DNA from: Amoebophrya sp. A120
Taxonomy: Eukaryota; Protista; Dinoflagellata
Assembly (NCBI GenBank): GCA_905178155.1
Contig: CAJINV010000017.1
Coordinates: forward strand, 426,722-490,721
Length of the DNA stretch: 64,000 nt
Reading direction: 5' to 3'
Shown: positions 6 to 63,800 of the stretch, in pieces
How the letters are laid out: every line of letters begins with the position of its first letter
How positions within the stretch are numbered: position 1 is the stretch's first letter
The notes under the pieces: model-generated
Database searches by the model: none
What the model was told of the DNA's origin: nothing
What the model saw: only the letters and a program-made list of their open reading frames with translations
Position numbers and translations under genes: made by a program

Positions 6-3000
6 ATGGAGGAGGTCCGGTGCCCCAACAGGGACTGTGAGACCAAGCTGGTGCGTGTTGACCCCGCGGCTCCAGATGCGCAGGGTCGCTTCGCGTGCAA
101 CAATGGCCGTTGGTGGATGCAATTCCAGCAAAGTGATTCCTGGAAAGTCAATGACGGCAAGGAGTGCACTACTCTCTCTGAATCTAAGGCCCACAAAGCT
201 ATCCTGCCCGGCACCCCGACCTGCGGCACCGAATGCGAGGGCTACTGGAAGGTTCCCGGCGTGCCGGAGACGGAATCACTTCAGAAAACGCGAACTGAGC
301 TGGTGCGAGACTTCTGTGCAAGAAAGTGGCAGGGCGTGCTCACGGCGGACAAAGTTCTAACTCTCCCGGTCGAACGGGATTTGGTAAGCGGTTCCAAGGA
401 GTACGTGATGCCAAGAACCTCGGACTTCTTCCTGAGACAAACCTACCAGGTGACGCAGCACGCGGCCCAGGGGGGCAGGAATTGCCCCAACAGGGAGAAA
501 ACAAAAGAGTACATCTTCTGCGCCACTGATTGCGAGTACGCGATGTTCGGCGACTGGAGTGTTTGCGAAAACGGAACGCAAACGCGCGACCTCGAGGTGG
601 TGAACCGGGAACAACCGGGAAAATATTTGCAAGTTTGCCAATTCCATCCCGACTTTCGAGAAATGGTGAAGAAAAGCAAGACCGCGGAGAAATTGATAGC
701 GGCAGATAAAAATGGTGTCGGATCATCGGGACTGAAGTACGCAAACAACAAGACGCTACAGGCGCTTGCCAATAGCGGCCTGCAGAGGTATTTTCTTTAC
801 CAAGATGCTGAAACAAGTAGGAATGCGTTGTCGAATCGACCGATCGAGCTCGAGGAGCACCGCGAGACGCGAAGTTGCGGCACGGACTGCGTTGGCGAAT
901 GGGACTTTACCGAAGGGGATTTGAAAAGGCAGTGTCTGTCGCAACTGAAGACCAGTTCCTACCTGCGGGGGAAATCCAACGCTTTTGTGTGGCGTACGTT
1001 CAAGCACACGCAGTTGGCACAGGACGGCGGGAGAGAGTGTCTCTTCCAGGATGGATTCAAGGACTGGGTGAAGTGTGATCCGGTGGATTGCCGTGGCGTC
1101 TGGAGCACTTGGACAACGAGTGAGGCCGTGTGCGAGCACAATACACACAGCGATGCGGAGGTACTTTTGTTGGCAGGCGAGGAAAAGAATAGAAATGCTG
1201 GAACTACAACCAGTAAAGCAGATGGTTCAGAACAAAGACAAACTAAAACGTCTTTCCTGGAACATGAGCCGGCAAAACTTGCTGACAAAATCAGCACCAA
1301 GACGAAAGTGCAGTTCCAGACCAAACCCACACTGCAGAGGCCAAGCGCATCCTCCGCACTTCTGGCGAGTCCTGAGGAAAGCCCTACGACGAGTGCGACG
1401 ACACGAGAACAAGAACCGTTCCAGTCCCGAAAATTTTACGTGGAGCAGCCCGAGCTTTACGGGGGGATTCCTTGTGGATACGCCGATGGCTTCATCCAAA
1501 AGCGGCTCTGTGGACCGCAGTATACGTACCCGGCGGACAGTATTTCTGAAGATTCCTCAGTACCAGGGACGACGGCAAGCACGGGCACGTCAAGCACTGC
1601 TGCTACTACGTTACCGACTGTGTCTAGTGTTAACCAACATTCCCCTGTTGTAGTTCTCGAACATAAACCGATAAGAGCGCCAACTAGTGAAATGAGACCA
1701 CCAACAGGACCGGAGGTTGCGCCAGGACCGGTTGGGACAGCATCAATTAGTCAATGGAGACCACCAATGGTTGCGCCAGGACTGGTGGCGCTAGGTGGGC
1801 CACAATTTCCTACTGGCGGAAATGATGCCGCTGGAGAAGGTGAAGAAGATGATAAAGAAAATGAAAATAAGGACGACAACGACGAGGAGAACAATTACAT
1901 AGCGGATCACCAACCACCAGCTGAACCAGGTCCCGATGGGCCTCAGATTGAGGAAAAGGCACCTGCAGCTCCACGCGGCCCCGCAGCAAATAACGTCCCC
2001 GCATTCGCAAACGGGATTCAGCAAGATCACTCTTGCAGCACATTTGCCTGGGACAAGACGCGGGTTGAAGTTTTGGACAGTTGCAAAGCACAGCTCGAAC
2101 AGCTGCTCGCGGACAAAAACGCACAAGTCGCGGCCGTCGGCCCGGAGGCGGTGGTTCCTGGCAGCTTGGACGCGGAGTACCTAGACAAGGCGAAGAGCAT
2201 ACAAGTAGAAGTGAAATTTATGCAGACCAGGGAGAAGAATCAAAGTACAGGTGGCGAAGAAGAAACAGGAAACAAGACTGAACAGGGCCTGTTCCAGCAG
2301 TACAATGGAGACGAAACAAGCAAAGCGGACGAGAAGGAGAAAAAAGCCAGCAATGGAGAAAGTATTGCAAACGGTAAAAACTCTACCTGCGTCTTTCAGG
2401 AAAACGAGACGAAGCAAATTCTCTGTCGCGAGGCGCTCACGGAGCAGTTTGACAGGTTAGGGTTTGCAAAGGACGAGGCCCAGGAGACGGAACAGATTAT
2501 AGCACAACAGACGGTCGCAGATCTGGGTCTAGGAGGTGGAGGCGCAGGAGCTGCTCCTCAGGGTTATTTTGCTCCTCCGTCCGCCTCCGCGAGTCGTGAA
2601 ATATTTCTTTTGTCGGATGTCCTCAACTTATTCTCCCCGTTTTCCGGTGGCACACACGAAGGCAGCACAAGCAGAACTAGTGCCACGACTTCTGGATCAG
2701 CATCCACGACAGGAGAGGAAGAGAATGCCACGACTTTTGGCGATCACGAAAGTTCTTCCAGTTCTTGTCTCTCCTGCACACCTTCCACCTGGACACCTTG
2801 CGGCTGGATGGGTTTCCTCGCGTTTGTCGGCGGGCTTCTGTATCCTGGGCAAAAGTATGGTCACTGGTAGTAATTATCGCAGTCATGCATGACAAGAGTC
2901 GTTCGTAAGCATGTGCATGAGCTAAATGAGCATTACAAAGTAGAACTTCATTTCTCGTGCTTGAAAAAATTTGTGAAGATGCTATCGCTACTAGCTACGA

Positions 3001-4870
3001 TACTTTTGCAATCCATATCCTGCTCATAACGGCCGCGGCTGGTGTGGTACTGTCTGCGGATGATTACATAGACTCGTCTGACTTCGATGAGATGGAAACA
3101 CAAACAGAGACGGACGAGTCGGAAATGTTGCGTGCCGCGGCCGCCCGCGGCGCCTACGATCCGGAATCCTCGGATCTTTCCGACTCGCAGAAAGAGCACA
3201 TTCTCGAGCAGGAAAGAACGCTGCGGAAAGGAGAAAAAAAGTTGAGGCGGAAAAGGGAACAACCTCCTAAGCGGACAAACATCTTTACCGCGCTAAAAAC
3301 GAGAATAAGGCGGGGTCGCGCTGGTGCTGCTGGAGGGGCGGCTCGTACAGCTTCTCCACGTGCTGGACAAGTAGGAGGCGCCGAAACTCCTCGCGGTGAG
3401 CAGCAGAGAAAGAACATCTTCTCCTTCTTTCGAAGGAAGAAGAACGCTGTGACCACAGCAGCTGAACCTCCGGTACCAAATCCATTCTCTTCAGGAGCCG
3501 ACCACACGATAGGGACGAACAAGGTTGCAGTTGTTCCTCCTACTAGCACTACTTCGTCCAGCATCAAGGACCACTTGCACTTCCTCCGCACGGCTGACAA
3601 CAAAACTACGAGTGCTGGTGCCCCGTCGATCCTCGCTAAGGAGCGCGAACAGCAAAAATTGCAGGGCGTGGCCGGGAATAGTAATAAACTTGGCGCCAGT
3701 GCAGCGAGTACCAGTAGATCTGGCTTTATGCAACTTTCTGGTCAAGGCGGTGATGAGCACTCTTCTCATACCACGGTGATACAGGACTCGAACCTCCTGA
3801 CTTTTGAGTTCAACAGCGGAAGCAAGTATACCGTGCCCCTGCAGGCCGCAACCGCAGTGCATCACGGGGGAAATGATTACCACGATGCAGAGGATCTGCA
3901 TAAAGTTAAAGACAGTACTTCGAACAGAATCAAAACAACAGGAACTACAGAATCAAAACAACAGGAACTACAGCGACAAGACCAAGAAGGATTTACCACG
4001 TCAGAAGTCGCTGCTGCGGTGCTGGGGCTGGAGAGGGGAGCCGCCAGCGCAGTGTTTCGCTACTCCGGTATGGAATCGGCTGTCGGCACAGCTTCTGCGA
4101 GGATGAAGTCCTCGACCAGAAGTCGGAAGAGCAGCTCGAGAATAGTAAGCCGCGATCATTCATCTCATGATCGGGCGTCTAGTAGCAGAGGCTCCTCCAC
4201 GGCGTCCGCGTCTGCCTCTTCCCTCGATAGTGTAGTTGGTCGCGTCACAGCGACGGGGGCTCCGCGTAGTTCAAGTAGAGGAACCAAGAGACTAAAGAAG
4301 AAGCAAAAACTGAAAGGAGATTTAGACCTGCGGAGTCATGAGGTGGAACACAAGGGCAAGATCAAGAAGAAAAAAGAAGAAAAGCAAAGCGGCAGAAAGT
4401 CGAGGTCCCGAAGCGTAACACCACGTGGTGCGACGCAAGAAAACCGCGGCCGTACCGGCTCCGGTGCTGGTGACCCATTAGGATTCGCTGCCAGTGTAGT
4501 TCCTGGCGCTGAGAGTTTGGAGAACCGCAAAAGCAGGCGAGCACTAGCGCCAAGAGCACCTTCATCACATCATAACCAAACTTCGTCGGCCATAGACTTC
4601 GAAAGCAGCCACTTCACTCCGAGGAAGAGCCGAGTGCGGACAACGACGGCGCAGAACACTTCTGCAGACGCAGCACATGAGCAGATTGCTCAGCTTGGTA
4701 ATTTATCGGCGAAGAGGAAAAGAAAGACGAAATTAGCTGGCGCTGATTCTAGTTCATCGGAAGACCACCTCGGTGAGAAAGTGGAGCCCATTCTTGACCC
4801 AGCAGAGGCGGCGCGCGGTAAAAAAGGCGGGAGGAAAAAGAAACCTGCTTCCAAGAACGCAGATGGTTGA
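6..4870 (+). CDS. Thrombospondin type-1 (TSP1) repeat single-pass membrane protein, TRAP/MIC-like adhesin; 5' end probably outside window
   Basis: TSP1-like motifs (CEYAMFGDWSVCENGTQTR, DCVGEWD, DCRGVWSTW, GGRNCP, GGREC, GGIPC) and a Pro-rich stalk. ORFs 6..2870 and 2957..4870 join in frame after removing non-canonical intron 2841-3022, which creates the TM helix WMGFLAFVGGLLLITAAAGVVL, followed by a basic Ser-rich tail. Confidence 0.75.
2841..3017. mobile_element. TIR introner / non-canonical intron, family A (TAT-N5-GCAAAAGTAT), degenerate
   Basis: Left tatcctgggcaaaagtat, right atacttttgcaatccata (13/18 complementary); flanks ttctg (2836-2840) and tcctg (3018-3022); removing 182 nt restores the frame. 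Confidence 0.75.
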
Positions 4871-9074: not shown

Positions 9075-11729
9075 ATGGCTCCCTCTCCAAGCTTTGACAG
9101 CAAGAAGTTTTCTGCCCGCGACACGGTGTCACACACCGAGGCGGCGCACTCGAAAGCCATGGATTTGGCAGCGCACGTGGTGAATTTTGACGACAAGGTT
9201 GCGATGTTGGCCGAAAAAAACAAGTTGCTGAAAGGCAAGCTAGCGGCTCACCAGCTGGACACGGCGGAGGTATTAATTTTCTAGAACAAGCATAAGATTT
9301 TTTTCTGTTGACGCGAAGATACTAACTAAAAGAATCGTAGACCCACTTGTTATGCATTCATTAGTACTGCTGCGTTCATCAAAAAATAACGATCCGAGGT
9401 CATGAGGGAACTGGAGTACACGCGCTTCGCCTGTTTCTACAAGTGGCGCGACATCGTGGCCGCCGAATACCGGCGGAAGAGGTTACAAGCCAAGAAACAA
9501 GCCTTCCAGGAGGACGGGGACCGGCTGCGGTTGGACAAGCTAGATCGCGAAACTGTTTTGCGGGAAGCGGAACGAAAAAAAGCGGAAATGGAGCAGGAGA
9601 AAGCAACATTGCAGGAGGAGTGTACAAACTTCGGCTTTGATGTTTTTCATCCTGGAGTGCATGACTGGTTGCGTTTTTTGTTGAATAATTCACTCACTGA
9701 AATAAAAATACTTGCAAAAGGAAAAGCGAACTTGTTGCGTGCGTGACAAATCGAAGTACTCCCTTGTTGAACTTCAGGTTCCGCCGTGCGGTCCCAGCTC
9801 GAGCAGTTGATATTGGAAGAGAAGCAGCTGGAGTTGCAATTGGCAAGTAACGAAGACTGGCTTGACATCATGCGGACTAACGCAACGGAAAAAGCGCAAC
9901 TGAGAACAAGGCTTTCGTCCTCACAGCAGAGCAAGCACGAGCCTGGTTGTTCTGTTCTCCATTCAAAATCCAGCACACCGCCGCTTACGCCGACAGGAAG
10001 ACACAGCAACGTGTCCGTGTCATCGCTGGTGCGGGAGTTCGGGTATTGAAAAATGCCATGTCTTACTGCGTGAGACGTAGGAAAGTCAGGAGGTTTCATG
10101 GAGCTCCTTTTACGACCTGCCCTCGTCGACGCTCCCGCCCCCCCGCGCGCAGGTCCCGCGCCAGCGCCGGGCCTCCGCGCCAGCGCCGCCCCGCGCCGCG
10201 CGCATCGGCGCCCGTGCCTCCCGCGCGCCCGCCGCCCGCGCCGGCGGGCTTGCAGGGTCACAGCGTCTACGACCTGCCCTCGTAGACGCGGTGGGGGGCC
10301 ACAGCGTCTACGACCTGCCCTCGTAGACGCGGTGGGGGGCCACAGCGTCTACGACCTGCCCTCGTAGACGCGGTGGGGGGCCACGGCGTCTACGACCTGC
10401 CCTCGTAGACGCGGTGGGGGGCCACGGCGTCTACGACCTGCCCTCGTAGACGCGGTGGGGGGCCACGGCGTCTACGGCCTCTGCTCGTAGACGCTGTGGG
10501 GGGTCACAGCGTCTACAACCTCTGCTCGTAGACGCTGTGGGGGGTCACAGCGTCTCCGGCCTCGGCTCGTAGACGCTGCGGGGGGTCACAGCGTCTACGG
10601 CCTCGGCTCGTAGACGCTGCGGGGGGTCACAGCTCCTTTAGCTTTTTGACTACTTCTTGCATGCAACGATGGCAGCTTTTAGTACTGCAAATACTGAGAC
10701 TGACACTGACATCACACACAACTCCCATGCTTCAGGATTCCTCCCTCCTCCTCAACATCCACCTGCAACCCTGCGGGCCCCGGGCAACTGACCCTCCAGC
10801 AGGCTGCGCGCGTGAAGGCCGGGCTGCTGAAGTCCCTCGCGCAGTTGGACGAGTTCAACAAAAAGCGGCACAAGGACGCAGCGGCCGCCTTGGGAGGTCC
10901 TGCGCACCATGCGTGGTCGTCAAGTATGAGGCTGCAGACACAATCCGGGAAGGAGCTGTCGCCGATAACGCCGGAGGTGGTCCTCGGAGAAGATATTAGC
11001 GACTTGCACCGGCAGGCCCGCGGTGACAACACAGAGGAAGTGGTAAACCTGAATAGTGTCACGGTGAACCCACCGCCACCAATAAAAGGCCTGAATTCAT
11101 CAGCATCATCCTATTATACGACCACGCCAAAGAACGCGATGCCACCGACGCGACTCCTCAGCACGAGCAGCTCGTCCGCGTCGGTTGGTATTCCCGCGCC
11201 GGCGAGCGTGACGCTGCCGCGGCCGACGGGCGCGCATTCCAGTTCGACTTTCAATTTACATAGTCGGATCGTCAGCGGAACAAGTGCTGCGGTTGTAGGG
11301 CGTGGAGTGTTGACCAGCACTGGTACTTCTTCTGCTGCTCCTTGTCAAACAGCTACAAGAACGCCAAACAGGAACCACTACGTCGGCGGACAACAGCACA
11401 ACAACCTTGCTGCCGCTACACTATCGGCAGTTGCATCTACAGGCACGTCTGCCACTGTAAGTAGATCAACACTGAGGAAGCCAACCGGTCTGCGGTCGCG
11501 CGCCGGCACGGCTTCTACGACCAGTTTGCTGTCGACACCTCTGCTCAGGGACCGCGGATCAACCGGGGGTGCGTTTTCTGCGCAGGGAGCTGCGGCGGAT
11601 GTAGTTGGGAACAATCTGGGTGCAGAGGGAGCGGACCAGCAGCGAGGGCCGAGAATCAGTGGAAGTGGAAAGAACGTCAAATCTTCCTATTGCTTCAAGA
11701 CTCCGGTCCCAGCGATGGGGCCATTGTAA
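9075..11729 (+). CDS. Hypothetical coiled-coil protein with Ser/Thr-rich C-terminus
   Basis: ORF pieces 9075, 9402, 9786 and 10812 join in frame through GT-AG introns 9270-9398, 9622-9777 and 10043-10735; heptad-like E/K/Q/L-rich segments. Confidence 0.7.
10261..10629. repeat. Intronic tandem array, 9 x 41-bp units, each an inverted-repeat hairpin followed by a G6 run
   Basis: Units start at 10261, 10302, 10343, 10384, 10425, 10466, 10507, 10548 and 10589. Unit is cagcgtctacgacctgccctcgtagacgcggtggggggcca, with stem gcgtctacga/tcgtagacgc. Confidence 0.95.
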
Positions 11730-13218: not shown

Positions 13219-16200
13219 ATGGTAGAAGCGACCTCAAGCGACCTTGCCAACTCTTCTCGGGTGGTTTTGAAGAATATTCCGCCCTATGTTTCGGAAGCGA
13301 AGCTACGGGAGCGCTTCCGCGCGCACGGATCCTTGACGGATGTGAAGATTTTGACGACGAAGGCCGGCACCTCACGGCAGTTGGCGTTCCTTGGGTTCAA
13401 GACGCCGGAAGAGGCCAGAAGGTATGGATTTTCTAGGTTTTTTGTTTTTGTTGGTCGTTCTCCTTGCTTGATATCATCATGTGTAGCACTGGGTATGGGA
13501 AGATCTTGATGTGTAGTCGTGTAAGAAAGTACTTCTGAAATCGACCCCCGTCGCCGATTAACGCAGGTGTGTGAAGGCCAACCACCGAACTTTTTTCGAC
13601 GCTTACAAGCTCCAAGTAGAGATCGCAAAACCCGTGGGCGACACGAACCTGCAGCGACCCTGGAGCAAGCACTCGAAGGGGAGCTCAAAATTCGAAAAGC
13701 AATTGGCGAAGAGCAAAGTGGGAGGAGGCGAAGGAGCAGATACAGTGCCAAACAAAACGGTGGAGGGTATCGCAGGTGCGACTTCTGTCGCGAAGAAATC
13801 TGCGAAAAGATCCAAAGCAGATGAAAAGAGCTTTGTCGCTGGACAGGGAGGAAGCGACGAAGCTGCAGCTCCTTCAACATTGTCCCCGGCAAAAGCGTTC
13901 GGAGAGGCAGCCGAGAAAAATGAAGACGAAGCTCTGCTTGCGGATGACGATAACGATGACGATTTTCTGTCCCGATTCAAAACCAACGCCGACGATTTGG
14001 AGTCAGACGGCGAAGACGCTGCAGGGCAGAAGCGGAAAGCAGACGAAAGAGATCATAACGCAGAATCCGCGACCACCTCGCCTGTTTCCACTAACCAGGA
14101 CGGAAGCTCCTCCGCTGCCGATCGCGACAAGTTGTCAACAGCAAAGGATGTTGAAACAGCCACTCCAGCAACAGGTGCCCCTTGTAGTTCCTCGTCGGCG
14201 GCGTCCACCGGACGTCTGTTCGTCACGAACCTGCCCTACAGCACTACCGAGGAGGAGCTAAAAGATTTTTTCGAACGGTTCGGAAGAAGTAGCGGACAGA
14301 ACACGACGACAGGTCCTCGTGACATAGACATAATGGAGGTCGGCGAAGTGAAGATTCCGAAAGACGAGGACACGAAGAAGTCCCGCGGCTTCGGCTTCGT
14401 CACCTACGTGTTCCCGGAGCACGCGGTCCGAGCCCTCGCCGAGTTGGACAAACAGTGCTTTCAGGGGCGCCTGATTTCCGTCCAGGACGCGAAGGAACAG
14501 ACTTCGAAAGACGGCGGGGTTGAGACGGAAGCAGGGGGTGCTACCAGCATGTTGACGGGTTTATCGAGTGCAAACAGCCACAGCAAGGCGGGTGCTGCTG
14601 AAAAATCTTCCTACAAGCGGCAGAAGCAGCAGGAGCTGAAGCAGCAGCAGTCGGAAAAGATCTGGAATCTGCTTTACATGTCGGCGAATTCCGCGACCGA
14701 CGCGATGGCGAAGCGGTATGGCGTTCTCAACTGTTACATTCTCAACTGTTTACGTGATTTGTCATGCAAATTTACCACCAAGATCGCCACGATTCAGCTG
14801 CTTCGCATGACAAATATCCGAAGGGCTAAACAGAATCTAAATCTGTGCCAAATCTGTGATGCAAAAGGCGCAATCTTCCCCCTTTCACTTTCGCCGTTCT
14901 TGCATTACAAATTCATGTCACAGTTGAGAATGTAACATTTGAGAACGCCATAAGCGGCTCGGCGTGGAGAAACGCGACCTGCTTTCCAAGGAGCACGACA
15001 AACTGGCAGTCACGGTGGCTTTGGGCGAGACGCAAATCATCGCGGAGACGAAGCGGTGGCTGGAAAAGGAAAACATCTGGGTGGACGCCTTCACCAGAAG
15101 TGGCAAAACCCTGCTCTCCGCGACCGAAAACCCGTTCGAGGAAAAAGCGGCAGCAATCGGAGGTGCATCATCTTCGGCAGGAGCTTCCTCTTCTTCATCG
15201 ACAACAGGAGGCCCACAGCAGCCGGTGCAGCACCGGCGCGCGAAAGACGTTTTTCTGGTGAAACATCTGCCCGCCGAGTCGGTGTCCGAGGCGGAGCTGC
15301 GGGAGCGATTCGCGCGGTTCGGCGAAATCCGGCGGTTCTGTCTGGCGCCGTCAAAAACGGTGTGCGTCGTGCAGTTTGCGAGCAGTGTGGAGGCGGAGCG
15401 GTGCTTCAACAAAGTGAATTTCTCCCGGTACAAGCACGTTCCCTTGTTTCTGGAATGGGCACCCGAACAGATCTTCAGGAACGCAGGGGAACTACCTAGT
15501 AAAGATCAGGCGACCAAGAATCAGAAGGTACAAGAATCTGCTGGGGTATCAGGTGATGCGACGTCTGCAAAGCAGGGTGCAAATGGCGACCAGCAAGGTG
15601 AAGAACAAACGACTGACCAGCAGCACCCTTCGTGCAGCATTTTCGTGAAATATCTGAACTTCAACACCACCGAGATGAAACTGGAGCAGATCTTCCGGCA
15701 GCACGAGGGCTTCAAAAAGGTCACTCTGATGAAGAAGAAGGGCTTATCGTCAACCTCCGACAGCGCAGCAAAGCAAGTGTCGATGGGGTACGGATTTATC
15801 GAGTACCAAACTATGCAGCAGTGCGAGGCCGTGGTCAAAAAACGGCAGAACATGCCCCTGGACGGCCACGTACTGCAGCTGCAGGTGTCGGACCGGAAAA
15901 AGGCGGGGCAGTTTAAGGACAAGCAAAAATCTCTGGCCGGAGTAGAGATATCATCAACGTCGTCTAGGAGAAAAAACAACGCAGAACAGGACGCCGATTC
16001 TGCGGCCAACGGGGACGAAAATAAGCCGCTGTCCAACAAGCTGTGTGTGAGGAACATCGCTTTTGAGACGACGAAGTCTGAGCTGCAGCAGCTCTTCGCA
16101 CCCTACGGGACGGTGACCTCTCTGCGCCTGCCGAAGAAGGCCGACCGGTCCGGCCAGCACAGGGGGTTCGCGTTTGTGGATTTCCTGACGAATATCAAAT

Positions 16201-16782
16201 GTAAAAATGTCTGGGTCTGGAAGATTGCGAGATTTGTCATGCACATTTTGCATGACTCCCGATGTCTGTGATGCATGCCCTAGCATCACAGATTTTGCGA
16301 GGGCTTCCTGATGCCTATACCGCATGACAAATGCTCTCTCCGTGTACGCAAAACTTGGACTCTCTTTGCTGCTCATGCAATACAGATTTTTTTAGAATCC
16401 AAAATCAGCATGACAAGTTGGATTCTTCCAGACCCAGACATTTTTACATTTGATAACGAAATCCGACTGCTTGAACGCGTTTGAAAACCTGCAGCACACA
16501 CACTTGTACGGCCGGAAGCTGGTCTTGGAGCCCGCAGAGAAGGAAGCGCTCACGCTAGAGGAGATCCAAGCCGCGCAAGTCTTGAATTTGACGAAGCAGT
16601 CGGAAAAGGAAAAGCGAAAAAGGGAGAATGTAGTTGATGCTGGTAGAAGTACCGCAACGGCTTCCGAGCAGAAGAGCGCGGGATCATTCGCTGCGCAAGT
16701 CTTGGAAGACGGCGGACACAAGGGGAAGAATTCCTCGACTGGGAAACCCCCGAAAAAGAAACGGAAGATTGCAAAATCGTAG
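13219..16782 (+). CDS. RBM19: Multi-RRM ribosome biogenesis protein RBM19/Mrd1
   Basis: Five RRMs (SRVVLKNIP, GRLFVTNLPY...SRGFGFVTY, VFLVKHLP...VPLFLEWAP, SMGYGFIEY, KLCVRNIAF...HRGFAFVDFLTK...HTHLYGRKLVLE). GT-AG intron 13422-13566; non-canonical introns 14717-14957 and 16193-16460. Confidence 0.93.
14717..14952. mobile_element. TIR introner / non-canonical intron in RBM19 (33-bp TIR)
   Basis: Left tatggcgttctcaactgttacattctcaactgt versus right acagttgagaatgtaacatttgagaacgccata (1 mismatch in 33); perfect direct repeat agcgg at 14712-14716 and 14953-14957; removal gives AMAKRLGVEKRDLL. Confidence 0.95.
16193..16455. mobile_element. TIR introner / non-canonical intron in RBM19, family B (32-bp perfect TIR)
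   Basis: Perfect TIR tatcaaatgtaaaaatgtctgggtctggaaga; perfect direct repeat acgaa at 16188-16192 and 16456-16460; removal restores the RRM sequence FAFVDFLTKSDCLNAFENLQHTHLYGR. Confidence 0.96.
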
Positions 16783-17704: not shown

Positions 17705-20312
17705 ATGTTCTCGTCGAACCGAGAGCGCCGGGTCGTGCCTGCGCGTGCAGGTGCTACCGCGGCAATGGTGCTGTTGCTCTCTTCCAAGGCAACCGTCAAT
17801 GTTGCCGCCGACACGATGGAGAAAAGAAGTTCAACAGTGAAGAAATACACCCTGACGAAAAAGAAGTACATGAATGAGTACAAGGTCATGCCGGGGCACA
17901 CCAAAAAGGAGCATATCATCTCGGACCGCACACACATGCAGCTGAAAGCAACCGAGCTTCCGGCAGAGCTGAACTGGGCCGATTATGCACGGGGAAGACT
18001 GCGCTAGTGTACCTACTAGTTTTCTTTGCCTGCAGCTGCAGCTGTGAAGATGATGAAGATCACAGCACTTTTTACAAGTGGGCCGCGCTCGAAATTGAAC
18101 TTGTACAACTTCGTGCGCCTGTGCAGTTGGAGTTTAGGCTAGTACCTGAAGAAAGCGCAGAAAAAAATGAAAATAGGGGCGCGCTTCCAGATGAATGACA
18201 CCACCTTTAAGCGGTGTTTAAAGAACGCCTTCGCAATTTTTTTTTGTTGCGAAACTGCTACACATGGATAATCATGGTACACCAGACGAGTTATTTTTTC
18301 TTGCATACCGACGTGAAGGGAAAGAGCCTGCTGACAAAGAATCTGAACCAACACATTCCGCAGTATTGTGGTAAGTATACTAGTCTTCGTTTTTTTAACT
18401 TTAATACGTGAAGATCCTGTTCCTGAAGATCCTGAGTGACTGAATGATTATCTCCTCAGCACAGGTCGTGTCCGCACCTAGTAGGAATATTTATAGAAAA
18501 GCAACACTACGAAACGCAAACGACGACATGGACATCATGATCCTGATATCAAATAAAGGTTCCTGCTGGGCCCACGGTGCAATCTCAGCGCTCTCGGACC
18601 GCATTAAAATCGCACGAAAGGGGAAGAGCCCGGACATCAACCTGTCGGTACAGCATATCCCACGAAAAAACTGTTTCACTGTGATGATCTTGCAAGATCT
18701 GTATCACAAGTTTGTTACACATGACACAGAGAATTTGCCATGCGCGCTTCCAAAGGGAAAACACCGCTAAAGAGTCGAGGTCTTGCAGGTGTGGCAAGAC
18801 AAATAGTTCTGTCTTCCATTCTATGCATCACAAGTTCACAGCGAAGCAGTTTTTTCTTGCGATACAGCACGTGTTGAATTGCGGTGGCGAGGTCGCCGGA
18901 AGCTGTTACGGAGGATCGCAGTCCGGAGCTTACCAGTGGATCCATGATAACGGGTAAATTGTCTATACTGCAGCCTTTTTTAGACCCATGTTGATCGTGA
19001 GGTCTTGCTTGCTGTCTGCTATTCTTGCTCCCCGCTTTACCGGCATTGATCGCCGTGCATACTTCTGCATGTCTACGATTCTACTTAGCGGTAATACTAA
19101 CAGTTGCTCCACTTGCACTAGCTAGATGGGAACTAAGCTGCACCTCTTCGTTCTTTGTCTCAGATACTTACACATGACGCACCGTCTTCTACTTTTTCGA
19201 GCACACATACTGGAAAATATCCGGAAAACTACCCCTGCAGTTTCGTCGCCTACGACAGTGGGAACCCCTACCTTGCCTGCTCTTCCGATAGCAAGAACGG
19301 CATTTGCGTGCACGCCGATTTCACTTGCACGGCCAAGAACGTCGCGAGAACTTGCTCTGTATCCATTCTGCAAATTTCAATTTAGCGACGTAGTACTACA
19401 CATAGCGTGCTATATGAAAAATCCTTACCATGATGCGCCAGAACTATCTTTCTTGCTTGAAACATGCCAGCAAAGTCACGGCCACTTCTTGTGCTGTGCA
19501 GGGGGCGACATTAACGTGGAATGCAAGGCTGTAAATAAAAAACCTAGTACAACAGCTGCATGCGCTATGTCGCTTATGATACCTACTTTTGCAGTGGATA
19601 CTATACCTTTCCGGAGATGGGCGGAAAGTGTGTGGGGTTGACCCATTTTCCGAACGCGACTATTGCGGAATACGGCATGGTGTCGGGTGTGGAAGACATG
19701 AAGAAGGAGCTGATGCGCGGGCCCTTGGCCTGTGGTAAGTGAACAACGTGATGCATAAAATAAAGCTCGTTGTTTTTTCATACTGAAACAGCACTAGCAG
19801 ATGCATCGGAAGTACAACGTAGACGGGAGGTTTTACTTGTATTCGTCACACTTCATCACCATTTGCTCTGACATCGCTTTCGATCTGATCCATCTTTCAA
19901 TCACTTTTAAGGTATCGACGCCGACAACCTGCGTGACTATCACAAGGGCGTTTTGGACATTCCGGACGGCACGCGCAACATCAATCACGTGATTTCGGTC
20001 ATTGGGTGGGGCAAAACCCCGGAGGGCAAGGAGTACTGGATTGGTCGCAACAGCTGGGGCGAGTACTGGGGCGAGCTCGGGCACTTCCGCATTGCCACCG
20101 GCGGGTCACAGGCGGGCATCGAGGACGAGTGCTCCTGGGCGGTGCCGGGGTCCTGGACCGAGAACAACTTTCCGTGTGAGGAAGACGGCACGGGGTGCTT
20201 GGAAGAGGGCGACCAGGCGGGAACACCGGTACTCACCAATCTGGTGGAGAAGAACGTGCTGAAGAAGAACAAGGTGCAAGCGGAACAAGCGCAGGAGGAG
20301 GTGTACAACTAG
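17705..20312 (+). CDS. CTSZ: Cathepsin Z/X-like papain-family cysteine protease
   Basis: [15 protein letters not shown] (HIP mini-loop and catalytic Cys), [57 protein letters not shown] introns 18371-18558, 18954-19240, 19735-19911; non-canonical introns 17984-18312, 18656-18869, 19360-19605. Confidence 0.95.
17984..18307. mobile_element. TIR introner / non-canonical intron in cathepsin Z (degenerate TIR)
   Basis: Ends tatgca...tgcata with an inner gtgtacc/ggtacac pair; flanks ccgat and ccgac; removal gives [25 protein letters not shown]. Confidence 0.88.
18656..18864. mobile_element. TIR introner / non-canonical intron in cathepsin Z (29-bp TIR)
   Basis: tatcccacgaaaaaactgtttcactgtga versus tcacagcgaagcagttttttcttgcgata (4 mismatches in 29); perfect direct repeat cagca; removal restores the conserved LSVQHVLNCG. 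Confidence 0.93.
19360..19600. mobile_element. TIR introner / non-canonical intron in cathepsin Z, family A (degenerate)
   Basis: Left tatccattctgcaaa, right tacttttgcagtggata; flanks ctctg and ctata; removing 246 nt gives ARTC(S)[11 protein letters not shown]. Confidence 0.85.
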
Positions 20313-21205: not shown

Positions 21206-24200
21206 ATGATGTCGCAGTCCGTGTCTTCGTTTTGTTTTCGGTCGCTGGCGTTTCGCACAAATTTGTTGTTTTCTCTCTTCACGGGCTTGGGACCCCCTTC
21301 TTCATCTTCGGACTACTATACAACTCCGATCACGACTTCGAAGAAGAAGGCAGCCTCCTTCCATCCTCGGCAAGGCTTTCAGATCTTTGCAGCGGCATTG
21401 TCCACTCAGACCACCCGATCCAGTGCCGCGCAACAACCTCGAAGGAGGCCGACGAACCGGCACAATACGCCCATTCGGCCGACGAGACGGCCGTCAGTCA
21501 CAAGTAGCGTGACCGCGGAGTCGGAACAGGACATCGGGACCGACAATGAGCATTACCACCAGCGAGCGCGAGGGCAGCAGCAGCACAGAGCCGCTGCTCC
21601 GGTCGCGATGTCCTCAGGGGCTGCGTATGACTTCCGCAGTTCCAGTAAGGACAGCAATCGGGGCGGAAGTGGTCGTCGTGCAGGGTCGCTTGTTGGAGGT
21701 GGAAGCAAGAACACAGTAGATGAAACGCCTGCATCTTCACGAGGGACAACCACCACTGCAGGGGTAGTAACGGCATCAAGTGCGAGACAAGGAAAGCAAG
21801 GAAACTCGTCCTCCGCTGCGTCCGCCGCGATCACAAGAACAGCGGGCACAACTACTACAGCCAACTCAGCATTTACCCCTGCCTCGCAGCCAAAAAGGAC
21901 ATCACGTGGACTTCGAGACCACGGTCAGGAGAGCGACACTGGTGGTGAACCGATCCGACCTACACCCAGCACGACGATCCCGGTATTGTCCGCGACCGCG
22001 ATTCGGAAACGGTGCTCCCCCGGTTTCTACTCGGTCAGCTTTGATCCGGAGCTGACCAAATACGCCACCATGACGGCCGACAAGAAAGTTCTGCAGACCA
22101 AAATGGGCTTTCTCTTTGTCCTTTCCGATTTGCTAGAGAACAATCAGGAGTGGCTGGTTGCCGATTTAACGCTGAGCAAGCTCCGGCGCTGCAGGTGCCG
22201 CGAGAATAAATTGGTGCTGCATTTCGAGCAAAACAACGCCCTGTTGGTGGAGAAAATCGTGCCAGAGCTGACCACGAAGAAGCAGATGACAGAGATCGCT
22301 CCTGGAACGGGGATATTTAGCTTCGCGGAACATCAAGTAGCCGGTGGATTTGACGGGACAAGTGGTGCAAACCCGACAGGCTTGTTGCCACCGCCACCGA
22401 GTAGCGACTCTACCTCTCACCACAACGAGGGGTCGACGTTGCTGCACCAGACCCGGAGCTTCGTTTTCGGCGGCGTGGAGATCTCGAAATCGCAGAACAG
22501 CACGTTGCAGCGGATGTTGACATCTTCAAACAATAACTCCAACAATCTGCTCGCCGTTTCAACCGGCTCCTCCGCCTCGGCGGTGGCTGGGGGGCCGGCG
22601 GGAAGCGGTTCGGGCGCGGGTGCACCACCACAGAAAATCACATTGGAGCCAGCGGAAGAAAACACAGAAGGAGCAAGGGTGAAAAATGATGCGGGAACGG
22701 AAATAGAGCTAGAGCCGCAGTTGCGCGAGAAGCAGCAAGGAGTCGTTCTCGCCGTGCAAGATTCCGAAGAATTCAAGGACTACATTCACCAACGCCGGGA
22801 CCTGGCCTGGAGCCACGCCGAGCCCGTGAAGAAACTATGACAGTGCACAACTCCCCCTCCCCCTCATTTGTCATGCAAAATACCCAATCCACCCATTGCT
22901 TCTGAGCACTGTTTGCATGACAAGTTCTGGTAGCCCAAATAGCACTACACTCCAGTGCAAATTTGTCACGCAAAACCGGCATCCTTTTCCTTGCTGATGC
23001 CTGTATTGCTGTTCATGCTATACAAATGAGGGGGAGGGGGAGTTGTGCACTGTCATAGAAACGGAACAAAGTCGTGAAACCGAACCAGGACCTCTCGTTT
23101 CTGCTGGAAAACGTAGCGGCACCGCCAAAGCGGTACATGCGGTCCAGGGGAGGTGGTGCCGGCCACGCGAAGAAATTTGTGGAGCTGAATAACCGGCCAG
23201 GTGCAAGTTTTTGTGGTGTGATGTACACTACAGCTTCGGCATGTTGAGAAATCATCATCCACACTTTTTTTTTTTGAGACGATAAAAAATGTTCTCACAC
23301 ACACTCTCACCACATGCAATGTCGTGGACAGTGTGTTACTAGGCGCATGATGCTGCCCAAAGAAGTACGTACAGATGAACTACGGACGCAGAGGAAATCT
23401 AGAAAACAAATCATTATTTAATCTGCAGGCTCCACTCTCGAGGCGGGCGTGTACATGAGCCCGATCAACCCGAAGGTCGGTCTGGTTCTGGACAAGCACC
23501 GAACCACAGGCCAGTTTTCCGAGGTGTCCCCGAGCGTTCTGAAGGACAAGGTGAAAATCCCGAAGCTCGGTGTGAACCTGTTCAAGAGCAAAATGCGAAA
23601 CGTGAAAACCGCGGCGAATGACGAGGAAACGAAGCGGCAAACGTCGATGCTGCTGCACGGAGTGGAGGTACAATTCTCGCACAGCCTAGACGCGCCGACA
23701 GAAGGAGACGGTGGAGTTGCAGGGCAGAAATCTCTGACCACGCTAGTACCCGCGCCAGCATTACCTTTCTCAACTTCTGCGTGTCCTGCACCTCCGGGGG
23801 CTCGTGTGGAACGACTGGTCCAACCTCTGGCCGCTCAGGTCCTGGACGCCAGCCCGGAAGTGATGTACAACTGCATGAAGTCGCTCGAGCTCTCCATGGA
23901 GATGTTTGACCTCTTCCAAGACGAGGAGTTGGAAGACGAGGAATTGTGCGAAGACGAAATGAAAGACCACGAAGTGACGCACGAAGGAGACCAGGACCCG
24001 GACCGGGAAGACCTCGATCTGTTGAACTCGGAAAACGAAGGGGCAGCTGGTACTAGGTCTAGGAACTGCACGACGATGAAAAGATCAACACGGGTTAACA
24101 GCCGAAAACCGACCGCCGAATTTGTTCACCAAGAGGTCCGAACCCCGCCCGCCGCCGCGATGCTGTCGATGAGTAACTCGCAGGTGAGTCTGCAGCAACT

Positions 24201-29329: not shown

Positions 29330-30371
<1,042 letters not shown>

Positions 30372-33625: not shown

Positions 33626-36024
<2,399 letters not shown>

Positions 36025-49958: not shown

Positions 49959-52511
49959 ATGCTTCCTGGAGACAACAACCTCGCGGAGCCGCTGGAGCTT
50001 CCCGAGGTGGTCCAGCAGCGGTTGCTCGAGGAGATCATGCTTGCCGAGCAACAGGAAATATTAAACGCCGAGGAGCAAGAACTTCCACCCGCAATTGCAG
50101 CAGCAGTGGGCGGCCAGCAAAACAACCAAGCGCCCCCCCGTCCCCAACGCAGAGGTCCTGGGGGCTTGATCGTGCGTGGCGGGCCGCGAACGCGACGAAG
50201 TCGAGGGAGGCGGCGAGGCCGGAGATCCACCGACGATGCGCCCGCCAGTCTGTTCATCATCGCCATGATGGCGGTTTTCGGGGCGTTTCTGACCTACTAC
50301 GCCTACTGGTATCTGGAGCAGGCGCTGAAGCACGAGCGCGAAACGGCAATCGAAAAGTACAACCGGGTCGCTCGGAAGTGGTCGCTCGCGGGCCGAGAGG
50401 AGTTCTCGGAAGAAAATTTCGAAATCGCGCTGGCCCCAAGCGAGTGGAAAGAGATGGAGGATTTGAAGAACGAGAAGAAGCCGCAAGTTCTTTCGTACGC
50501 GCGGATGCACAAGTCCGTGCACTTGACCGATGTGGAGGACCTGTTTGCGCACGACACGACGCACGGTGGGGGAGAGATCGAGGTCTACAAGCCACTAGTA
50601 TTCACGAAGAAGATCGAAGTCGTCAAAGGGAAGAACGGAAAAGATGATAGGGAAGCACAAGCAGTAGATAAGTCGGCGGCCGGACTCGGAACAAAACAGC
50701 AACCCGGCGAGGACGAGAAGATAGATCCGCTTGACAAAGAGAAGCTTGAAGCAGAGATTGAAAATAACGCTGCTGAGGTGAAAGAGGCGCCTTTATCCGC
50801 ACCAGAAGTGAAAAAATACAACCACTTCGAGGACGATTTTTTGAACTTGTACGTGAAAGGCAGCACTTTCCCGCCGGTGAGAATATCGCCACAGATCCCC
50901 CTGGAAATCAAGCACGTGCGGCCGTTCTCAGAGCCAGGAGGGTACAGCCAAATCTACACACAGCACCACAGCCCGTCTTCAGCCAGCTCCGAAAGTGAAG
51001 AAGAGAGGAGGAAGCAAATGAAAGCGCGGCGACCCAGCTTCCACCCGATACCCGGGGCGGCGAGCTGTGAGAGCGAGGCGGCGAGTGGGGTGTTTCAAAC
51101 AAATTTATCTACCGGTGCAGCTGCAACAACTTCTACCGCCTCCGGCACGGCAGCTGCAGCTGCAGCTCCAGCGCGCAGCTACAATCCGGTAATCCACGCC
51201 ATGCAGCTGCGAAACAACCCAGCGCTGTCGCCAAACTGCTTGCAGACGTGGCGACTAGCGTCGGTGTGCCTGCTGTACAACCCGCAGACGCACAGTGTCG
51301 GGTTTGATACCAGTGTCGAGGGGAAGAAAACCGACCCGGGCGTGCTTTGCGGTGAGCCAATGTATGCGCCGGTCGTGTTCATACCGCCCAGCTTGGCGGC
51401 AAGTAAGGCCGCAGCAGCAACGACACCGGGAGGCGGGGTAAATAAGCCTGCAGCTGCAACAACAGGGGCGAAGGACAGCGCTAGTAGGAGCATGGAAGAT
51501 TTGACAAGCAAGTCTTCGTTCCCCGACCTAGTAGCAGAAACAGAACCTGGTCCTCCTGCTCTTACGCCGCCTCCCAGACAACCTCCACCTCTCTCCACGT
51601 TCGACGGCAGTGTCTACCTTCCCACCGCGAGCACACGGGAGGCGGTGGTCAGTGGGCATTTGGACCCGAGCGCGCTATTGCTGAAACAGCCGCACCGAGA
51701 CGACGGCACCGCGAGCAACGCTTTGAATCTCGCGGACCAGCAGCAGAGAGCGGAGGAACTGCTTCGCGAGGAGCAGAAAGAGGTACTGATGAACAATATG
51801 CTGGACCAGACAAGAATAAGACGTACACTACAGGAGGTGATGGGAAACAGAGTTGCACCAGCAGGAGCTCCTCTATCAAGGGTGACTTCCGCAGATGATC
51901 GCCCAGTTTCTGGAGCACCTGCACCTCCGACAATTTCAATAGAAAATAACGGCGTCCTCCGCCCGGTCCAGATGCACGGGAGCGGCGGAAGCAAGCACGA
52001 AGTTCCAACGATAAATGTGATTTCAACTCCGTCTACATCGGCAGCAGGAGCTGCGAGAAGTACAACCTACGGCGAAGTTTTTGAATCTATCACCGTGCAG
52101 ATCCGTTCGACAGAAGACCCCTTTCTGTATCTTCGCGACGCCACGGCGGACAGCATGGACTTCGGGTTGGAGGCCCGGACCGGGTTCATCATCGGCACGG
52201 TGCTGATGCTCACTGCCGGCTGCGTGTGCGCGTTGCCCATCGTGAAGCTGTTTCAAATCTTGAACTACTGGGCGTCGGGGTTCTTCCGGTGTTTCGCCGA
52301 CTGTTGGAGATGCTTGCTGTTGTTGATCGGCGTCAGAAGAGCGCGGGTCGGGCCGGGAATGCTGCGCGCGAACCAGGAAGAGGAGCAGCAGGAGTTCATC
52401 TCGATCGAGGATTTAAGGATTTCAGAAGACGAGGGGTCTGCGACGGGAGGGGAAGGGGAGGATGTGGAGTTGGAAGCAATAGAAGGAGGTGGAGGAGGTG
52501 GGGAGGAGTGA
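49959..52511 (+). CDS. Hypothetical two-TM protein with large lumenal loop
   Basis: Long ORF; TM1 ASLFIIAMMAVFGAFLTYYAYWY, TM2 GFIIGTVLMLTAGCVCALPIV. Start taken at the ATG at 49959. Confidence 0.7.
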   Translation: MLPGDNNLAEPLELPEVVQQRLLEEIMLAEQQEILNAEEQELPPAIAAAVGGQQNNQAPPRPQRRGPGGLIVRGGPRTRRSRGRRRGRRSTDDAPASLFIIAMMAVFGAFLTYYAYWYLEQALKHERETAIEKYNRVARKWSLAGREEFSEENFEIALAPSEWKEMEDLKNEKKPQVLSYARMHKSVHLTDVEDLFAHDTTHGGGEIEVYKPLVFTKKIEVVKGKNGKDDREAQAVDKSAAGLGTKQQPGEDEKIDPLDKEKLEAEIENNAAEVKEAPLSAPEVKKYNHFEDDFLNLYVKGSTFPPVRISPQIPLEIKHVRPFSEPGGYSQIYTQHHSPSSASSESEEERRKQMKARRPSFHPIPGAASCESEAASGVFQTNLSTGAAATTSTASGTAAAAAAPARSYNPVIHAMQLRNNPALSPNCLQTWRLASVCLLYNPQTHSVGFDTSVEGKKTDPGVLCGEPMYAPVVFIPPSLAASKAAAATTPGGGVNKPAAATTGAKDSASRSMEDLTSKSSFPDLVAETEPGPPALTPPPRQPPPLSTFDGSVYLPTASTREAVVSGHLDPSALLLKQPHRDDGTASNALNLADQQQRAEELLREEQKEVLMNNMLDQTRIRRTLQEVMGNRVAPAGAPLSRVTSADDRPVSGAPAPPTISIENNGVLRPVQMHGSGGSKHEVPTINVISTPSTSAAGAARSTTYGEVFESITVQIRSTEDPFLYLRDATADSMDFGLEARTGFIIGTVLMLTAGCVCALPIVKLFQILNYWASGFFRCFADCWRCLLLLIGVRRARVGPGMLRANQEEEQQEFISIEDLRISEDEGSATGGEGEDVELEAIEGGGGGGEE

Positions 52512-53009
52512 GCTGCTATAATCCGGCGCCTAAGCCATTGTCTGTGATTGATCTTGTCTGTCTCACTTTTTTCTGAGAATACAATGGATGCTACTTAGTC
52601 AGTCCAGCGGAGGCGCCACGAGAAACGTGCGTCTTACAGGTTTGCATACTGAAAACAGATGATGATTTGCGTGCCTCTACTTGCAGATCATTGGAGTGTG
52701 CTCGTGTGAAACTATGTTCCCTGATGTCACCATGTGCAAATTGAGAAGTCCCTTCAAAACCAAGGCGTTTCCCGACTGTGGTTCCTGTGCTCCTTTTCAG
52801 TTTGTCGTCGTCTCGTGTTATGTAGAGCAGCACACCGCCCGTCGGTATCTTTTTGAAGGTCATGTGTCGTTCTCTAACATCACCTGGCTGCGGATTTGTT
52901 TTCTTCACATTCGTTCAATTGAAAACGACAGGAAGTCGCGTTTTTTGCGCCAGGCTGCACTGCAAAAGGTGATGCTTTGTACCAGCACTCTCTTCTCTGA
53001 GTCTGACTT

Positions 53010-60835: not shown

Positions 60836-63800
60836 ATGCTAGGGGGCCGTGCACAGGGGGGGATCCAGCCCTCGCCCGTGACCACGCTCAACCCTGGCTT
60901 CACCACTGCCAATGTGCATATGGATTGTAAAAATGTCTGGGTCTGGAAAATTGCAACTTGTCATGCTGTCTTTGGATCCCAAAAAAATCTGTATTGCGTG
61001 ACCAGCAACAGGGGTCCAGTTTGTGTTACGCGGAGGGGGCATTTGTCATGCGGAATAGGCATCAGGAAGCCCTCTAAAAATCTGTGATGCTAGATCATGC
61101 ATTACATGAGTCATGGATCATACAAAATATGCACCACAAATCCCGGAATCTTCCAGACCCAGACACTTTTCCACTTGATAGTGCAGCCGGCGGGGCGGTT
61201 TACGCTGAAAATCGGCGTGCTCGGAAATCAAAGTGTCGGGAAGACGACCTTGCTGAATTCCCTTTTCCAGTATGCAACACAAATGTAGTATTCCACACGT
61301 ACAGAGCCTCCAAAACGCGTCCCGCTTTTTGTATGCATACTAGCATTTATTTTTGACACTGTTGTATACGACAAGCACAAGACCAAGACGTTACTCCATA
61401 GGAGTCTGTGTAATCTCGTCATGTCAGGGCTCCAGCTGCACGTGCAATTTGTACGTGCGCGGTACTACTTTTATCTTGCATATCCGAGACCAATTTGGGT
61501 CGGTATCGGAAAAACGATGCACAGCCGGAGTACACCATTACCACATAGAAGTGCTGCCGGTGACGGCGGAGGCACCAAAAACACTGGTGCAAAGCATCAC
61601 GAGCGTGGTATACAAGACGTGTGCTTTTTTTTTGGATGCTCTAAGTGATCTTGCTTCGCATGAGAGATGTATCACATAGCTCATGCGAAGATCTTCGCAT
61701 TTTCATTCTCAACGAGAGCTACACCTTGATCTCTCAACGCAAAACAGTTCCTGTCTTCGAAGCCTGAAATCCGCCCTGCGTCGGAAGTACATGGTCAAGT
61801 TTCAGAAATGGATCGCGTGCTCCGCCGATCTTCGATATGACTTGGAGCCGTGGTTGGAAATTTGTGTTTTATCAGTTCGTTTTGTTCCGTCGAACTAAGT
61901 TCGTTGTAGTGGAGTTCACACGATGAAAAGCATGAGCATCCGCAATCGAGTCTCTGTCGTGTGCAAGCCCTGAAGATTTTCGCAGATCCGTTTGCCTTTG
62001 CCTACATCGAAGGAACATGCCTGAAACCAATTCCCATTCCACACTTCTCCTTTCTCATACCCTCTCACGAACCGGGACAAGCCTACCAACGCCGCATTGA
62101 CGAAGGTGGAGAGCTGCAACTGGAAGGTCAAGTGCCCCGAGATCGTCAGTCTGGATGAGACCATCCCGAATGGCGGTTTGGATTTGGTGTTCGTCGACAT
62201 CCCCGGAATCAACTGCCCCGACAAGGGCGAGGCGTACAAAACGTACGTAAGCGAGAATTTCTCCGACTTCGACTACTTTTTGATAATGGTGGACGGCGAA
62301 AAGTTGATCGCGCAAAACAACGCCAGCGAAATGGGAAGTCCTGATGTGGATAAGGTGGGGAAGGTATAATTCTTGTGCGACGCCAGCATGATCACTACAA
62401 GGTGCGCAGCAGCACTGATAAAGTTTGCAGTCATGCGGATGAACATGAACCAACAACTGGATGTTCATATAGAAATTTCCTATGCGAGGAAACGAGACTA
62501 TGAGTATGATAATCATGAGCATTTTTCACAAAAAATCAAAATGATCAGCTCGCCGACGTGAAGATGCAGGTCGATCAGGACAATAGTAACAAACCGATGA
62601 GAACAACTTCGTCGAAGAACAAGTCATCGAAAAACCGATCTGCTAATAACTCCTACCGCGAACCCCCGCAAACTACTCGGGAGCACCACTATAATGACAA
62701 TAAGCAGCAGCAAGACGATTACAGCAGCGCCCCGTGGACCAGCGACTACGGCGAGCAGCAGTTCGCAGCGGTGGACCAGTCCCATGTCTATAACGCCGAT
62801 GGCAGCAACAGCAGCAACTGGCACTCGGCGAACAACAGTGGCAATGAAAACAACAACAATTCAGGGTTTTTTGACTACCACGACCAAGACCCAAATTACA
62901 ACTACATGCAGGAAGAACACTCCGCCGAGGAGTGGAAGGGCCAGAACGATCACGAGAGCGGTCTGCGGTACGGAAGCTCACTGAAAAGGAGTCGGGAAGA
63001 AGAGGAGTATCCGGTATACGCCAGTGTGAATTTTTTAGTAGTAACGGTAACCCGGCTGTCCCCACCATATGCCGGCTTGTGTATTTGTGGTGCTCTGTTC
63101 TTGTCTGCGCATTGAATTTTGAACTTGCAGTGTCGTCTGCTCATGTTGACCGCTAGTAAGCAGAAATAGAGCAGTAAAATCTTGTTAAACATTTCTTCGC
63201 AGTCCGCCGGTGCAGCCGCGCACGAAGTTAATGCCGCCAGTCCGTCTAGCTCCGACAGTGACCTGTCCCCGTCTTCCAGCGACAACCTTTCCTCGCCCGA
63301 GATTCAGCCACCGGAAGTACACGCACCCTTTCTCGGGGAGGACGACGCGAATCTCGTCCGGTGGTTCTCCAACCTCATGTTCGCGCAGGGACAGCATCTG
63401 GACATGCCGCCCTGCTGCATGTTGATCAACAAAATTGACGACACGATCGTAAAGGATCGGCGGGAGATTCAACAGACGATAAAACGCGTGAAGAACGCCA
63501 AGTGGTTCAGCTACGGAGACGAAGCCGTAAAGAGGGCAACAACCTTCCAGCACGTTTTCCCGATTTCGGCGATCGGGGCTTTAGGGGTCAGAATATCGAC
63601 CAGCCGAAATCTGAAGGAAACCGTGGCGACGGTATAGTGAATAGACTGAACAAGAAGATGTTTTTAACTATTCTGGAGTACTCGATGTAGTACTTCTTAC
63701 ATTTAGCTTCCCGATGTGGCCGTTGCGAGGTAGCTGCATCACCATCAGCTCGAAATTATGTGCCACCACTAGATATCTTAATGTTTGTAAAAATGCAAAA

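Follow-up and report, generated by a model that had tools for sequence, protein, structure and literature searches.

Hairpin introners of Amoebophrya sp. A120 that lack GT-AG ends are lost exactly from transcripts, in a pattern that fits a single cutting register

Introduction

The genome of the dinoflagellate Amoebophrya sp. A120 carries introner elements that are about 240 nt long, fold as hairpins, begin with an inverted repeat of 8-20 nt in which TAT is followed by seven looser bases and an A-run, are flanked by direct repeats of 3-5 nt, and have ends other than GT-AG (Farhat 2021, PMC7789003). More than 60% of the introns of both A25 and A120 are non-canonical (PMC7789003). The consulted sections of that paper find no clear signature in the two bases at either intron end and treat the sites as variable relative to the hairpin, with an unknown border; the 2024 reviews, in the portions consulted, repeat this variable-boundary view. 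Nor do the consulted portions of this literature state a fixed register for Amoebophrya, and Figs 3, 4 and S19-S23 of Farhat may already show the offset. The present analysis concerns eleven elements bounded by TAT and ATA in a 64,000-nt stretch of A120 (contig CAJINV010000017.1, positions 426,722 to 490,721; hereafter the window, with positions counted from its first base). They share with the A120 introners the TAT repeat with its A-run, the direct repeats, removal at ends other than GT-AG (seen for 7 of the 11) and a family with members elsewhere. Whereas the published description leaves the boundary variable, a single register, a donor read as +2T and +3A, and a slower decay of the terminal triplets are proposed here. 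The element class is already published; the cutting rule, in which one base precedes TAT and four follow ATA within the intron (N-TAT...ATA-NNNN), is new and partly confirmed.

Introners in general, in the sources consulted, likewise derive from non-autonomous DNA transposons, obtain their splice sites partly from the target duplication and leave mRNA length unchanged (PMC9860276, PMC12130899). The described families carry or recruit GY and AG, whereas the window elements need neither, and any 5-mer target would do. The introns of Fritillaria borealis, as presented in the sections consulted, also derive from terminal inverted repeats (TIRs) and target duplications, lack GT-AG and are removed by an adapted major spliceosome, as is likely for the window elements (PMC11282704, PMC13326754); their ends show constraint (AG-AC, AG-AT), linked to a U2AF duplication and a change in N6-methyladenosine, whereas both terminal dinucleotides of the window elements come from the repeat and are free.

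A parallel in layout is found in the nonconventional introns of Euglena (Nomura 2025, PMC12501133, consulted in part), which also have triplets that pair, each at a set distance from its cut and backed by a stem; their terminal bases are likewise free, the 3' spacer is the longer one, and GT-AG introns coexist with them. The Euglena code, 5'-N3CDG...CH'G-N5-6|R, has spacers of 3 and 5-6 nt, as against 1 and 4 nt around TAT/ATA, and places a purine at the start of the exon, whereas the first exon base after the element is C in 5 of 12 cases here (a twelfth, candidate element included); a test for the Euglena sequence failed, so that the layout alone is alike. Euglena is an unrelated lineage whose code was defined genetically; in Amoebophrya the triplet occupies the place at which the spliceosome would read a donor.

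Removal from transcripts and the cutting register

The register is defined here as the number of left repeat bases kept in the mRNA; register 4 means that left bases 1-4 and right base 5 are kept. Contigs of two sequencing runs, X1 and X3 (two samples of one study), were aligned to positions 14400-34399, a region that leaves 2841, 60919 and 61271 outside. Both runs were taken to be RNA by guess, as their type is not on record; because the contigs lack five GT-AG introns, they were judged to be spliced transcripts. The 15 joints listed, of 21 in all, comprise these five introns, seven element removals and three joints inside elements; the last, each with a side of 20-21 nt and found in a single contig, probably stem from paralogous copies and were disregarded.

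Each of the seven element removals among the joints listed skips exactly the element length plus 5 nt, and none has an equivalent placement as GT-AG or GC-AG, so that the usual U2-type definition (GT or GC donor, AG acceptor) fails at all seven (Table 1). Hairpin introns without GT-AG ends are lost exactly from transcripts. Mismatches between the two repeats then restrict the register: the left bases kept number 3 or 4 at 19360, 4 or 5 at 33981, 0-4 at 17984 and 2-5 at 29822, and the three perfect-repeat elements with a transcript joint permit every value. The only value common to all seven is 4, which is the register (left four, right one) that had been predicted from the genomic sequence. 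A single register 4 therefore fits all seven sites. Runs X8 and X9 contributed 123 and 3 raw reads, nearly all partial and lying on element ends only, and are uninformative on the register.

Protein homologues bear on two sites. At 19360, 19 cathepsin homologues were fetched, and the reading C-S-T-F, which the preliminary description had preferred as the best fit to cathepsin Z, occurs in 10 of the 13 that are readable; the alternatives C-S-A-F and C-Y-T-F occur in none. At 61271, the residues F-Q-D in homologues P0005 and P0006 limit the register to 4 or 5, and P0005, the gene call of a relative, runs through the site unbroken. For the dynamin-like exon a first homologue search was empty, and HMMER gave four matches, none spanning the junction. 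Among named proteins, two window genes have their best homologues in Amoebophrya A25 (75% and 81% identity).

The published end table points the same way. All nine predominant intron ends of A120 in Table S4 begin with GT, CT, AT or TT (PMC7789003, consulted in part), which is what register 4 would give, namely N-T; with register 5 the ends would read TA, and with register 3 they would be pairs at random. In A25 all nine top ends begin with TT, and the inverted repeat starts with TTA (same source); this fits +2T and +3A once more.

These data also bear on the possibility that the cut slides within the repeat from element to element (for example 3 at 19360 and 5 at 33981), register 4 being present in every set by accident. 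Each tested site does permit at least two registers, and the legend of Farhat Fig. 3 calls the sites variable (PMC7789003, consulted in part). Against this, were the registers random, the chance that 4 is permitted at every one of the five informative sites would be only about 2%, or 6% if 19360 is left out because the prediction was built on it (calculated by hand), and the top ends of Table S4 are all N-T. A sliding cut is accordingly regarded as highly improbable.

Table 1. Elements of the window and one candidate, with their introns in register 4 (all on the + strand)
Element	Intron	Ends	TIR and repeat	Gene	Evidence
2841-3017	predicted 2840..3021	GT-CT	TIR 4-8 eroded; repeat 4/5	gene without Pfam family	frame kept
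14717-14952	14716..14956	GT-CG	TIR near-perfect; repeat perfect	multi-RRM (RRM_1)	joint 14710>14952 in X1, skip 241
16193-16455	predicted 16192..16459	AT-GA	TIR and repeat perfect	same RRM gene as 14717	no joint among those listed
17984-18307	17983..18311	TT-GA		cathepsin Z/X-like	joint 17978>18308 in X1 and X3; register 5 excluded
18656-18864	18655..18868	AT-GC	repeat perfect	cathepsin	joint 18648>18863 in X1 and X3
19360-19600	19359..19604	GT-AT		cathepsin (Peptidase_C1)	joint 19357>19604 in X1 and X3; register 3 or 4
22836-23057	22835..23061	CT-AA	TIR and repeat perfect		joint 22829>23057 in X1 and X3
29822-30014	29821..30018	CT-TT		Rab-like GTPase (Ras family)	joint 29818>30017 in X1
33981-34165	33980..34169	CT-GC		DEAD-box helicase (DEAD)	joint 33979>34170 in X1 and X3; register 4 or 5
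60919-61180	predicted 60918..61184	AT-GC		dynamin-like GTPase	fold and repeat
61271-61482	predicted 61270..61486	GT-CG			homologues: register 4 or 5; predicted junction 61269|61487, would alone fix register 4
61836-62059 (candidate)	61835..62063		5-bp end pairing; repeat 1/5		predicted junction 61834|62064

Anatomy of the elements

All eleven elements of the preliminary description were recovered at the same positions by a scan of the 64-kb window for TAT...ATA pairs with flanking repeats. They measure 177-324 nt and lie within coding sequence on the + strand, in genes for an RRM protein, a cathepsin Z/X-like protease, a Rab-like GTPase, a DEAD-box helicase and a dynamin-like GTPase and in two genes without a Pfam match for the exon tested. 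Excision of the element plus 5 nt leaves the frame open at each of the 11. Once the right ends are reverse-complemented, TAT stands at 22/22 ends, followed by G or C and by an A-run at positions 11-14 (A at positions 12, 13 and 14 in 19, 19 and 20 of the 22 ends). The first three TIR positions pair in 11/11 elements, and positions 4, 5, 6, 7 and 8 in 8, 7, 10, 6 and 8 of 11. The 5-nt direct repeats agree at 47 of 55 positions. TIR and repeat are traits of miniature inverted-repeat transposable elements; no transposase is reported for A120 in the consulted parts of Farhat (PMC7789003), and none was sought in this analysis.

A filter on repeat and TIR passes nine TAT..ATA pairs, compared with a mean of 1.2 (maximum 3) in 30 shuffles. 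The elements at 17984 and 19360 fail this filter, yet both are removed in transcripts. Scanning for TIR and repeat without the TAT condition yields 90 pairs, mostly due to chance, of which four begin with TAT and three of these are real. The window holds no intergenic copy: among 20 matches of a profile scan, none is an unpaired or intergenic end with TAT. Elsewhere the same TIR families turn up in one metagenome assembly, at eight loci, and X1 and X3 contigs contain loose ends of them. As a separate observation, 112 raw reads of run X8, from another study, join the end of the TIR family of 16193 (16407-16455) to a different flank, with the window exons uncovered; this family seems to occur, and to be transcribed, in another strain or at another locus.

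On folding, all 11 elements beat their shuffles (z from -1.9 to -12.7). TAT pairs with ATA with a probability of at least 0.6 at all three base pairs in 9/11 elements and at two of three in 14717; 29822 is the sole element for which this pairing is not predicted. End-to-end pairing is mostly absent from the canonical introns of the window.

The copies had been thought to form an age series, and this holds: TIR score correlates with repeat match (Spearman 0.73, P 0.01, n=11). The six mismatched repeats and the four GTAT donors are exactly as described before. The loss of TIR pairing at positions 4-8 is also seen, but at 19360 and 29822 it is partly a slip of 1 nt and not substitution.

Conservation of the terminal triplets

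In the seven elements defined by transcripts, 5 of 35 repeat positions have changed, as against 0 of 42 TAT/ATA bases (conditional P 0.017, pooled 0.0015). Among all 11 elements, which were themselves chosen by the triplet, the counts are 8 of 55 and 0 of 66. TAT/ATA thus outlasts the target-site repeat. No wobble or compensatory change occurs at the triplets, and the donor +1 base has changed in three window elements, in two of them to G.

To avoid selection on the triplet, metagenomes were scanned with subterminal arms lacking TAT. The scan returned 119 loci, of which 111 were dropped as unrelated and eight, all from one assembly, were kept. Their 27 anchor rows reduce to 24 distinct ends after removal of two duplicates and one element-internal match. 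The + strand was taken as sense from open frames (unclear for locus L090), and there is no RNA for these loci. TAT stands at 21 of the 24 ends, at 11 of 11 on the right and 10 of 13 on the left. The exceptions, all on the left, are TAC in L033 (perfect repeat, donor GTAC), TAC in L094 and CAT in L033. The invariance claimed for TAT/ATA therefore stands at 22/22 ends in the window and breaks at three of 24 ends outside it, and the left-end exceptions mean that the rule is better written N-T-A-Y...A-T-A-NNNN. Separately, the copy with CAT (L033, 1259-1354) has an open frame running into it and is possibly unspliced or exonised.

Conservation of this kind could also arise if TAT/ATA were a transposase end signal only, with copies young or so recognised and splicing guided by hairpin shape alone. 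Several TIR families have TAT and the A-run at 11-14 in common, as transposon ends would, and the 11 elements were selected with a TAT/ATA filter. Decay of the repeat after insertion while the triplets persist, seen both in the transcript-defined seven and at the loci scanned for independently of the triplet (21/24), speaks against such a signal, as does the lack of the wobble or compensatory changes that a need for shape alone would allow. This explanation appears distinctly unlikely.

Canonical introns and the reading of the donor

Twenty-three canonical introns of the window, five seen in transcripts and the rest placed by reading frame, provide a donor profile: T at +2 in 23/23, A at +3 in 21/23, T or C at +4 in 17/23, and little beyond. 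The remark that most canonical introns have GTA donors is thereby borne out (21/23). The TAC variants of the metagenome fit this profile while breaking the third pair of the triplets; at the donor, this speaks for recognition of the sequence itself and not of pairing alone. At the other end, ATA stands at -7..-5 in 12/12 window elements (the candidate at 61836 included), as compared with A at -7 in 9, T at -6 in 6 and A at -5 in 5 of the 23 canonical introns.

A fixed register might equally be produced by a separate machine, as proposed for Euglena, or by an endonuclease and a ligase, which would recognise TAT:ATA at the foot of the hairpin and cut with spacers of 1 nt (5') and 4 nt (3'), the likeness to GTA donors being coincidental. 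The layout resembles that of the Euglena code N3-CDG...CH'G-N5-6, which was defined by genetics and for which no machinery is known (PMC12501133, consulted in part); the terminal bases are free on both sides, the right end is ATA in all 12 window elements and all 11 metagenome right ends, and U1 was not found (PMC7789003, consulted in part). Against a separate machine, +2T and +3A are common to canonical donors and to the differing A25 triplet TTA, and the recurring donor variant is TAC, which has the second commonest canonical +4 base and breaks the pairing. In addition, 15% of the canonical introns of A120 have the same repeat organisation, suggesting one continuum (PMC7789003, consulted in part). 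A separate cutter is thus considered unlikely.

The fixed position of ATA allows another variant, in which the donor is again recognised by the spliceosome but ATA (-7..-5) acts as a branch point merged with the 3' end, the acceptor being measured from the branch A and not from pairing. Fused branch and acceptor signals occur in some protists and yeasts, ATA holds this position in 12/12 elements, and 29822 is removed without predicted end pairing. However, the canonical introns have no such motif at -7..-5, the context of ATA misfits the branch consensus yUnAy, and long stems persist. A fused branch point is therefore judged very unlikely.

Several canonical introns have features that recall the elements. 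The motif GCAT(G/C/T)AC and its complement reach 7.3 per kb in elements, 1.7 in canonical introns and 0.26 elsewhere (examples in elements and canonical introns at 6676, 9659, 57093, 57591 and 62430); this enrichment may mean that some canonical introns are old elements, or that the motif is an intronic protein site. The canonical GTAT..AG intron 61608-61747 still folds as a hairpin (z -3.9) and is possibly a converted element; P0005 ends at the same position, and this intron seems to be shared, the element at 61271 not. Introns 29534-29687 and 34416-34525 have GTAC donors and ATA at -7..-5 before AG; at 2/23 this is near chance, and they look as would be expected of a converted element.

Proposed mechanism

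The reading preferred here, to which we give about an even chance, is that these are hairpin introns read by the spliceosome, with an N-T-A-Y donor and an acceptor 4 nt past the paired ATA. A non-autonomous TIR element would insert and duplicate a 5-bp target, and selection would then hold TAT/ATA. The major spliceosome would read the donor at +2 to +4, with the first base free, much like the short GTA donors of this genome. The long TIR stem would bring the ends together and replace recognition of AG, or recognition across the intron; a distance of 4 nt from the ATA paired with the donor would then define the acceptor. The transcript would keep left bases 1-4 and right base 5 and so recover the message as it stood before the insertion, whatever the target and the orientation. 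TAT...ATA equals its own reverse complement, so that a copy inserted in either direction and in any reading frame would be excised seamlessly; the spread of these elements through the genome would thereby be explained. In both A25 and A120, 83 of 89 spliceosome proteins were found (PMC7789003, consulted in part).

Several observations weigh against spliceosomal reading in a single register. No transcript-tested site fixes register 4 alone, only four sites are informative, and assembled contigs from one study conceal minor isoforms. The ends in Table S4 hinge on how the aligner places slidable junctions, 29822 being writable as TT-AG. That element is removed although its end pairing is not predicted. 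The metagenome left end CAT loses +2T, though the frame reads open into the element and the record covers this end alone, and the donor-side bias of the exceptions (3/13 versus 0/11) is not significant (P about 0.14, by hand). Free bases at +1, -1 and -2 conflict with the conserved docking of the 3' site in the spliceosome. Finally, U1 small nuclear RNA (snRNA), in the consulted sections of Farhat, was not found in Amoebophrya (PMC7789003).

A broader form of the proposal is put forward more tentatively, as a possibility that we hold to be somewhat less than probable. Most introns might follow a second exact code, N-TA...TA-NNNN, with +2 paired to -5 and no constraint on any of the four terminal bases; a spliceosome lacking U1 would read only +2T and +3A and take the acceptor from the foot of the hairpin. 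The same geometry would apply in A25 (TTA...TAA plus three bases) to an unrelated element family. Amoebophrya would then be a second lineage, after Euglena, to have evolved a ruler of paired triplets, in its case by redeploying the major spliceosome.

Other features of the window

A twelfth element, missed by the preliminary description, is possible at 61836 on the strength of its sequence, its rival being a GT-AG intron from 61817. The candidate is 224 nt long, starts with TATGA, ends with TCATA and has end pairs with probabilities of 0.88-0.99. Judged by the A25 orthologue, an exon that reads into a stop lies just upstream of the candidate, at about 61748-61834; removal of the candidate's length plus 5 nt restores the frame, although frame agreement alone is a one-in-three event. 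A twelfth element spanning 61609-62059 was also considered and proved wrong: the A25 orthologue shows a hidden exon inside it, and 61608-61747 is an ordinary GT-AG intron.

All window genes that were read lie on the + strand. One spliced 7.6-kb contig of run X3 (19911-22829, 21122-27668) spans the cathepsin gene, an intergenic stretch and the next gene, and may or may not represent one transcript. Between two genes, at 10255-10630, lie GC-rich units of about 41 nt that are repeated in tandem and contain palindromes. Three long genes (38946-42633, 43056-47534 and 49960-52512) are apparently intron-free beside intron-rich neighbours; the first resembles a DNA ligase IV gene. Rfam gave no matches in the window, which holds no snRNA gene.

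Implications

With a fixed register, tens of thousands of junctions that can slide become exactly predictable; it would permit the correction of gene models, and it shows which bases should be mutated. If the cuts are made by the major spliceosome, the terminal G..G pair and the AG would be dispensable when a hairpin holds the ends together. The elements would then also show how a transposon can escape selection at any target site.

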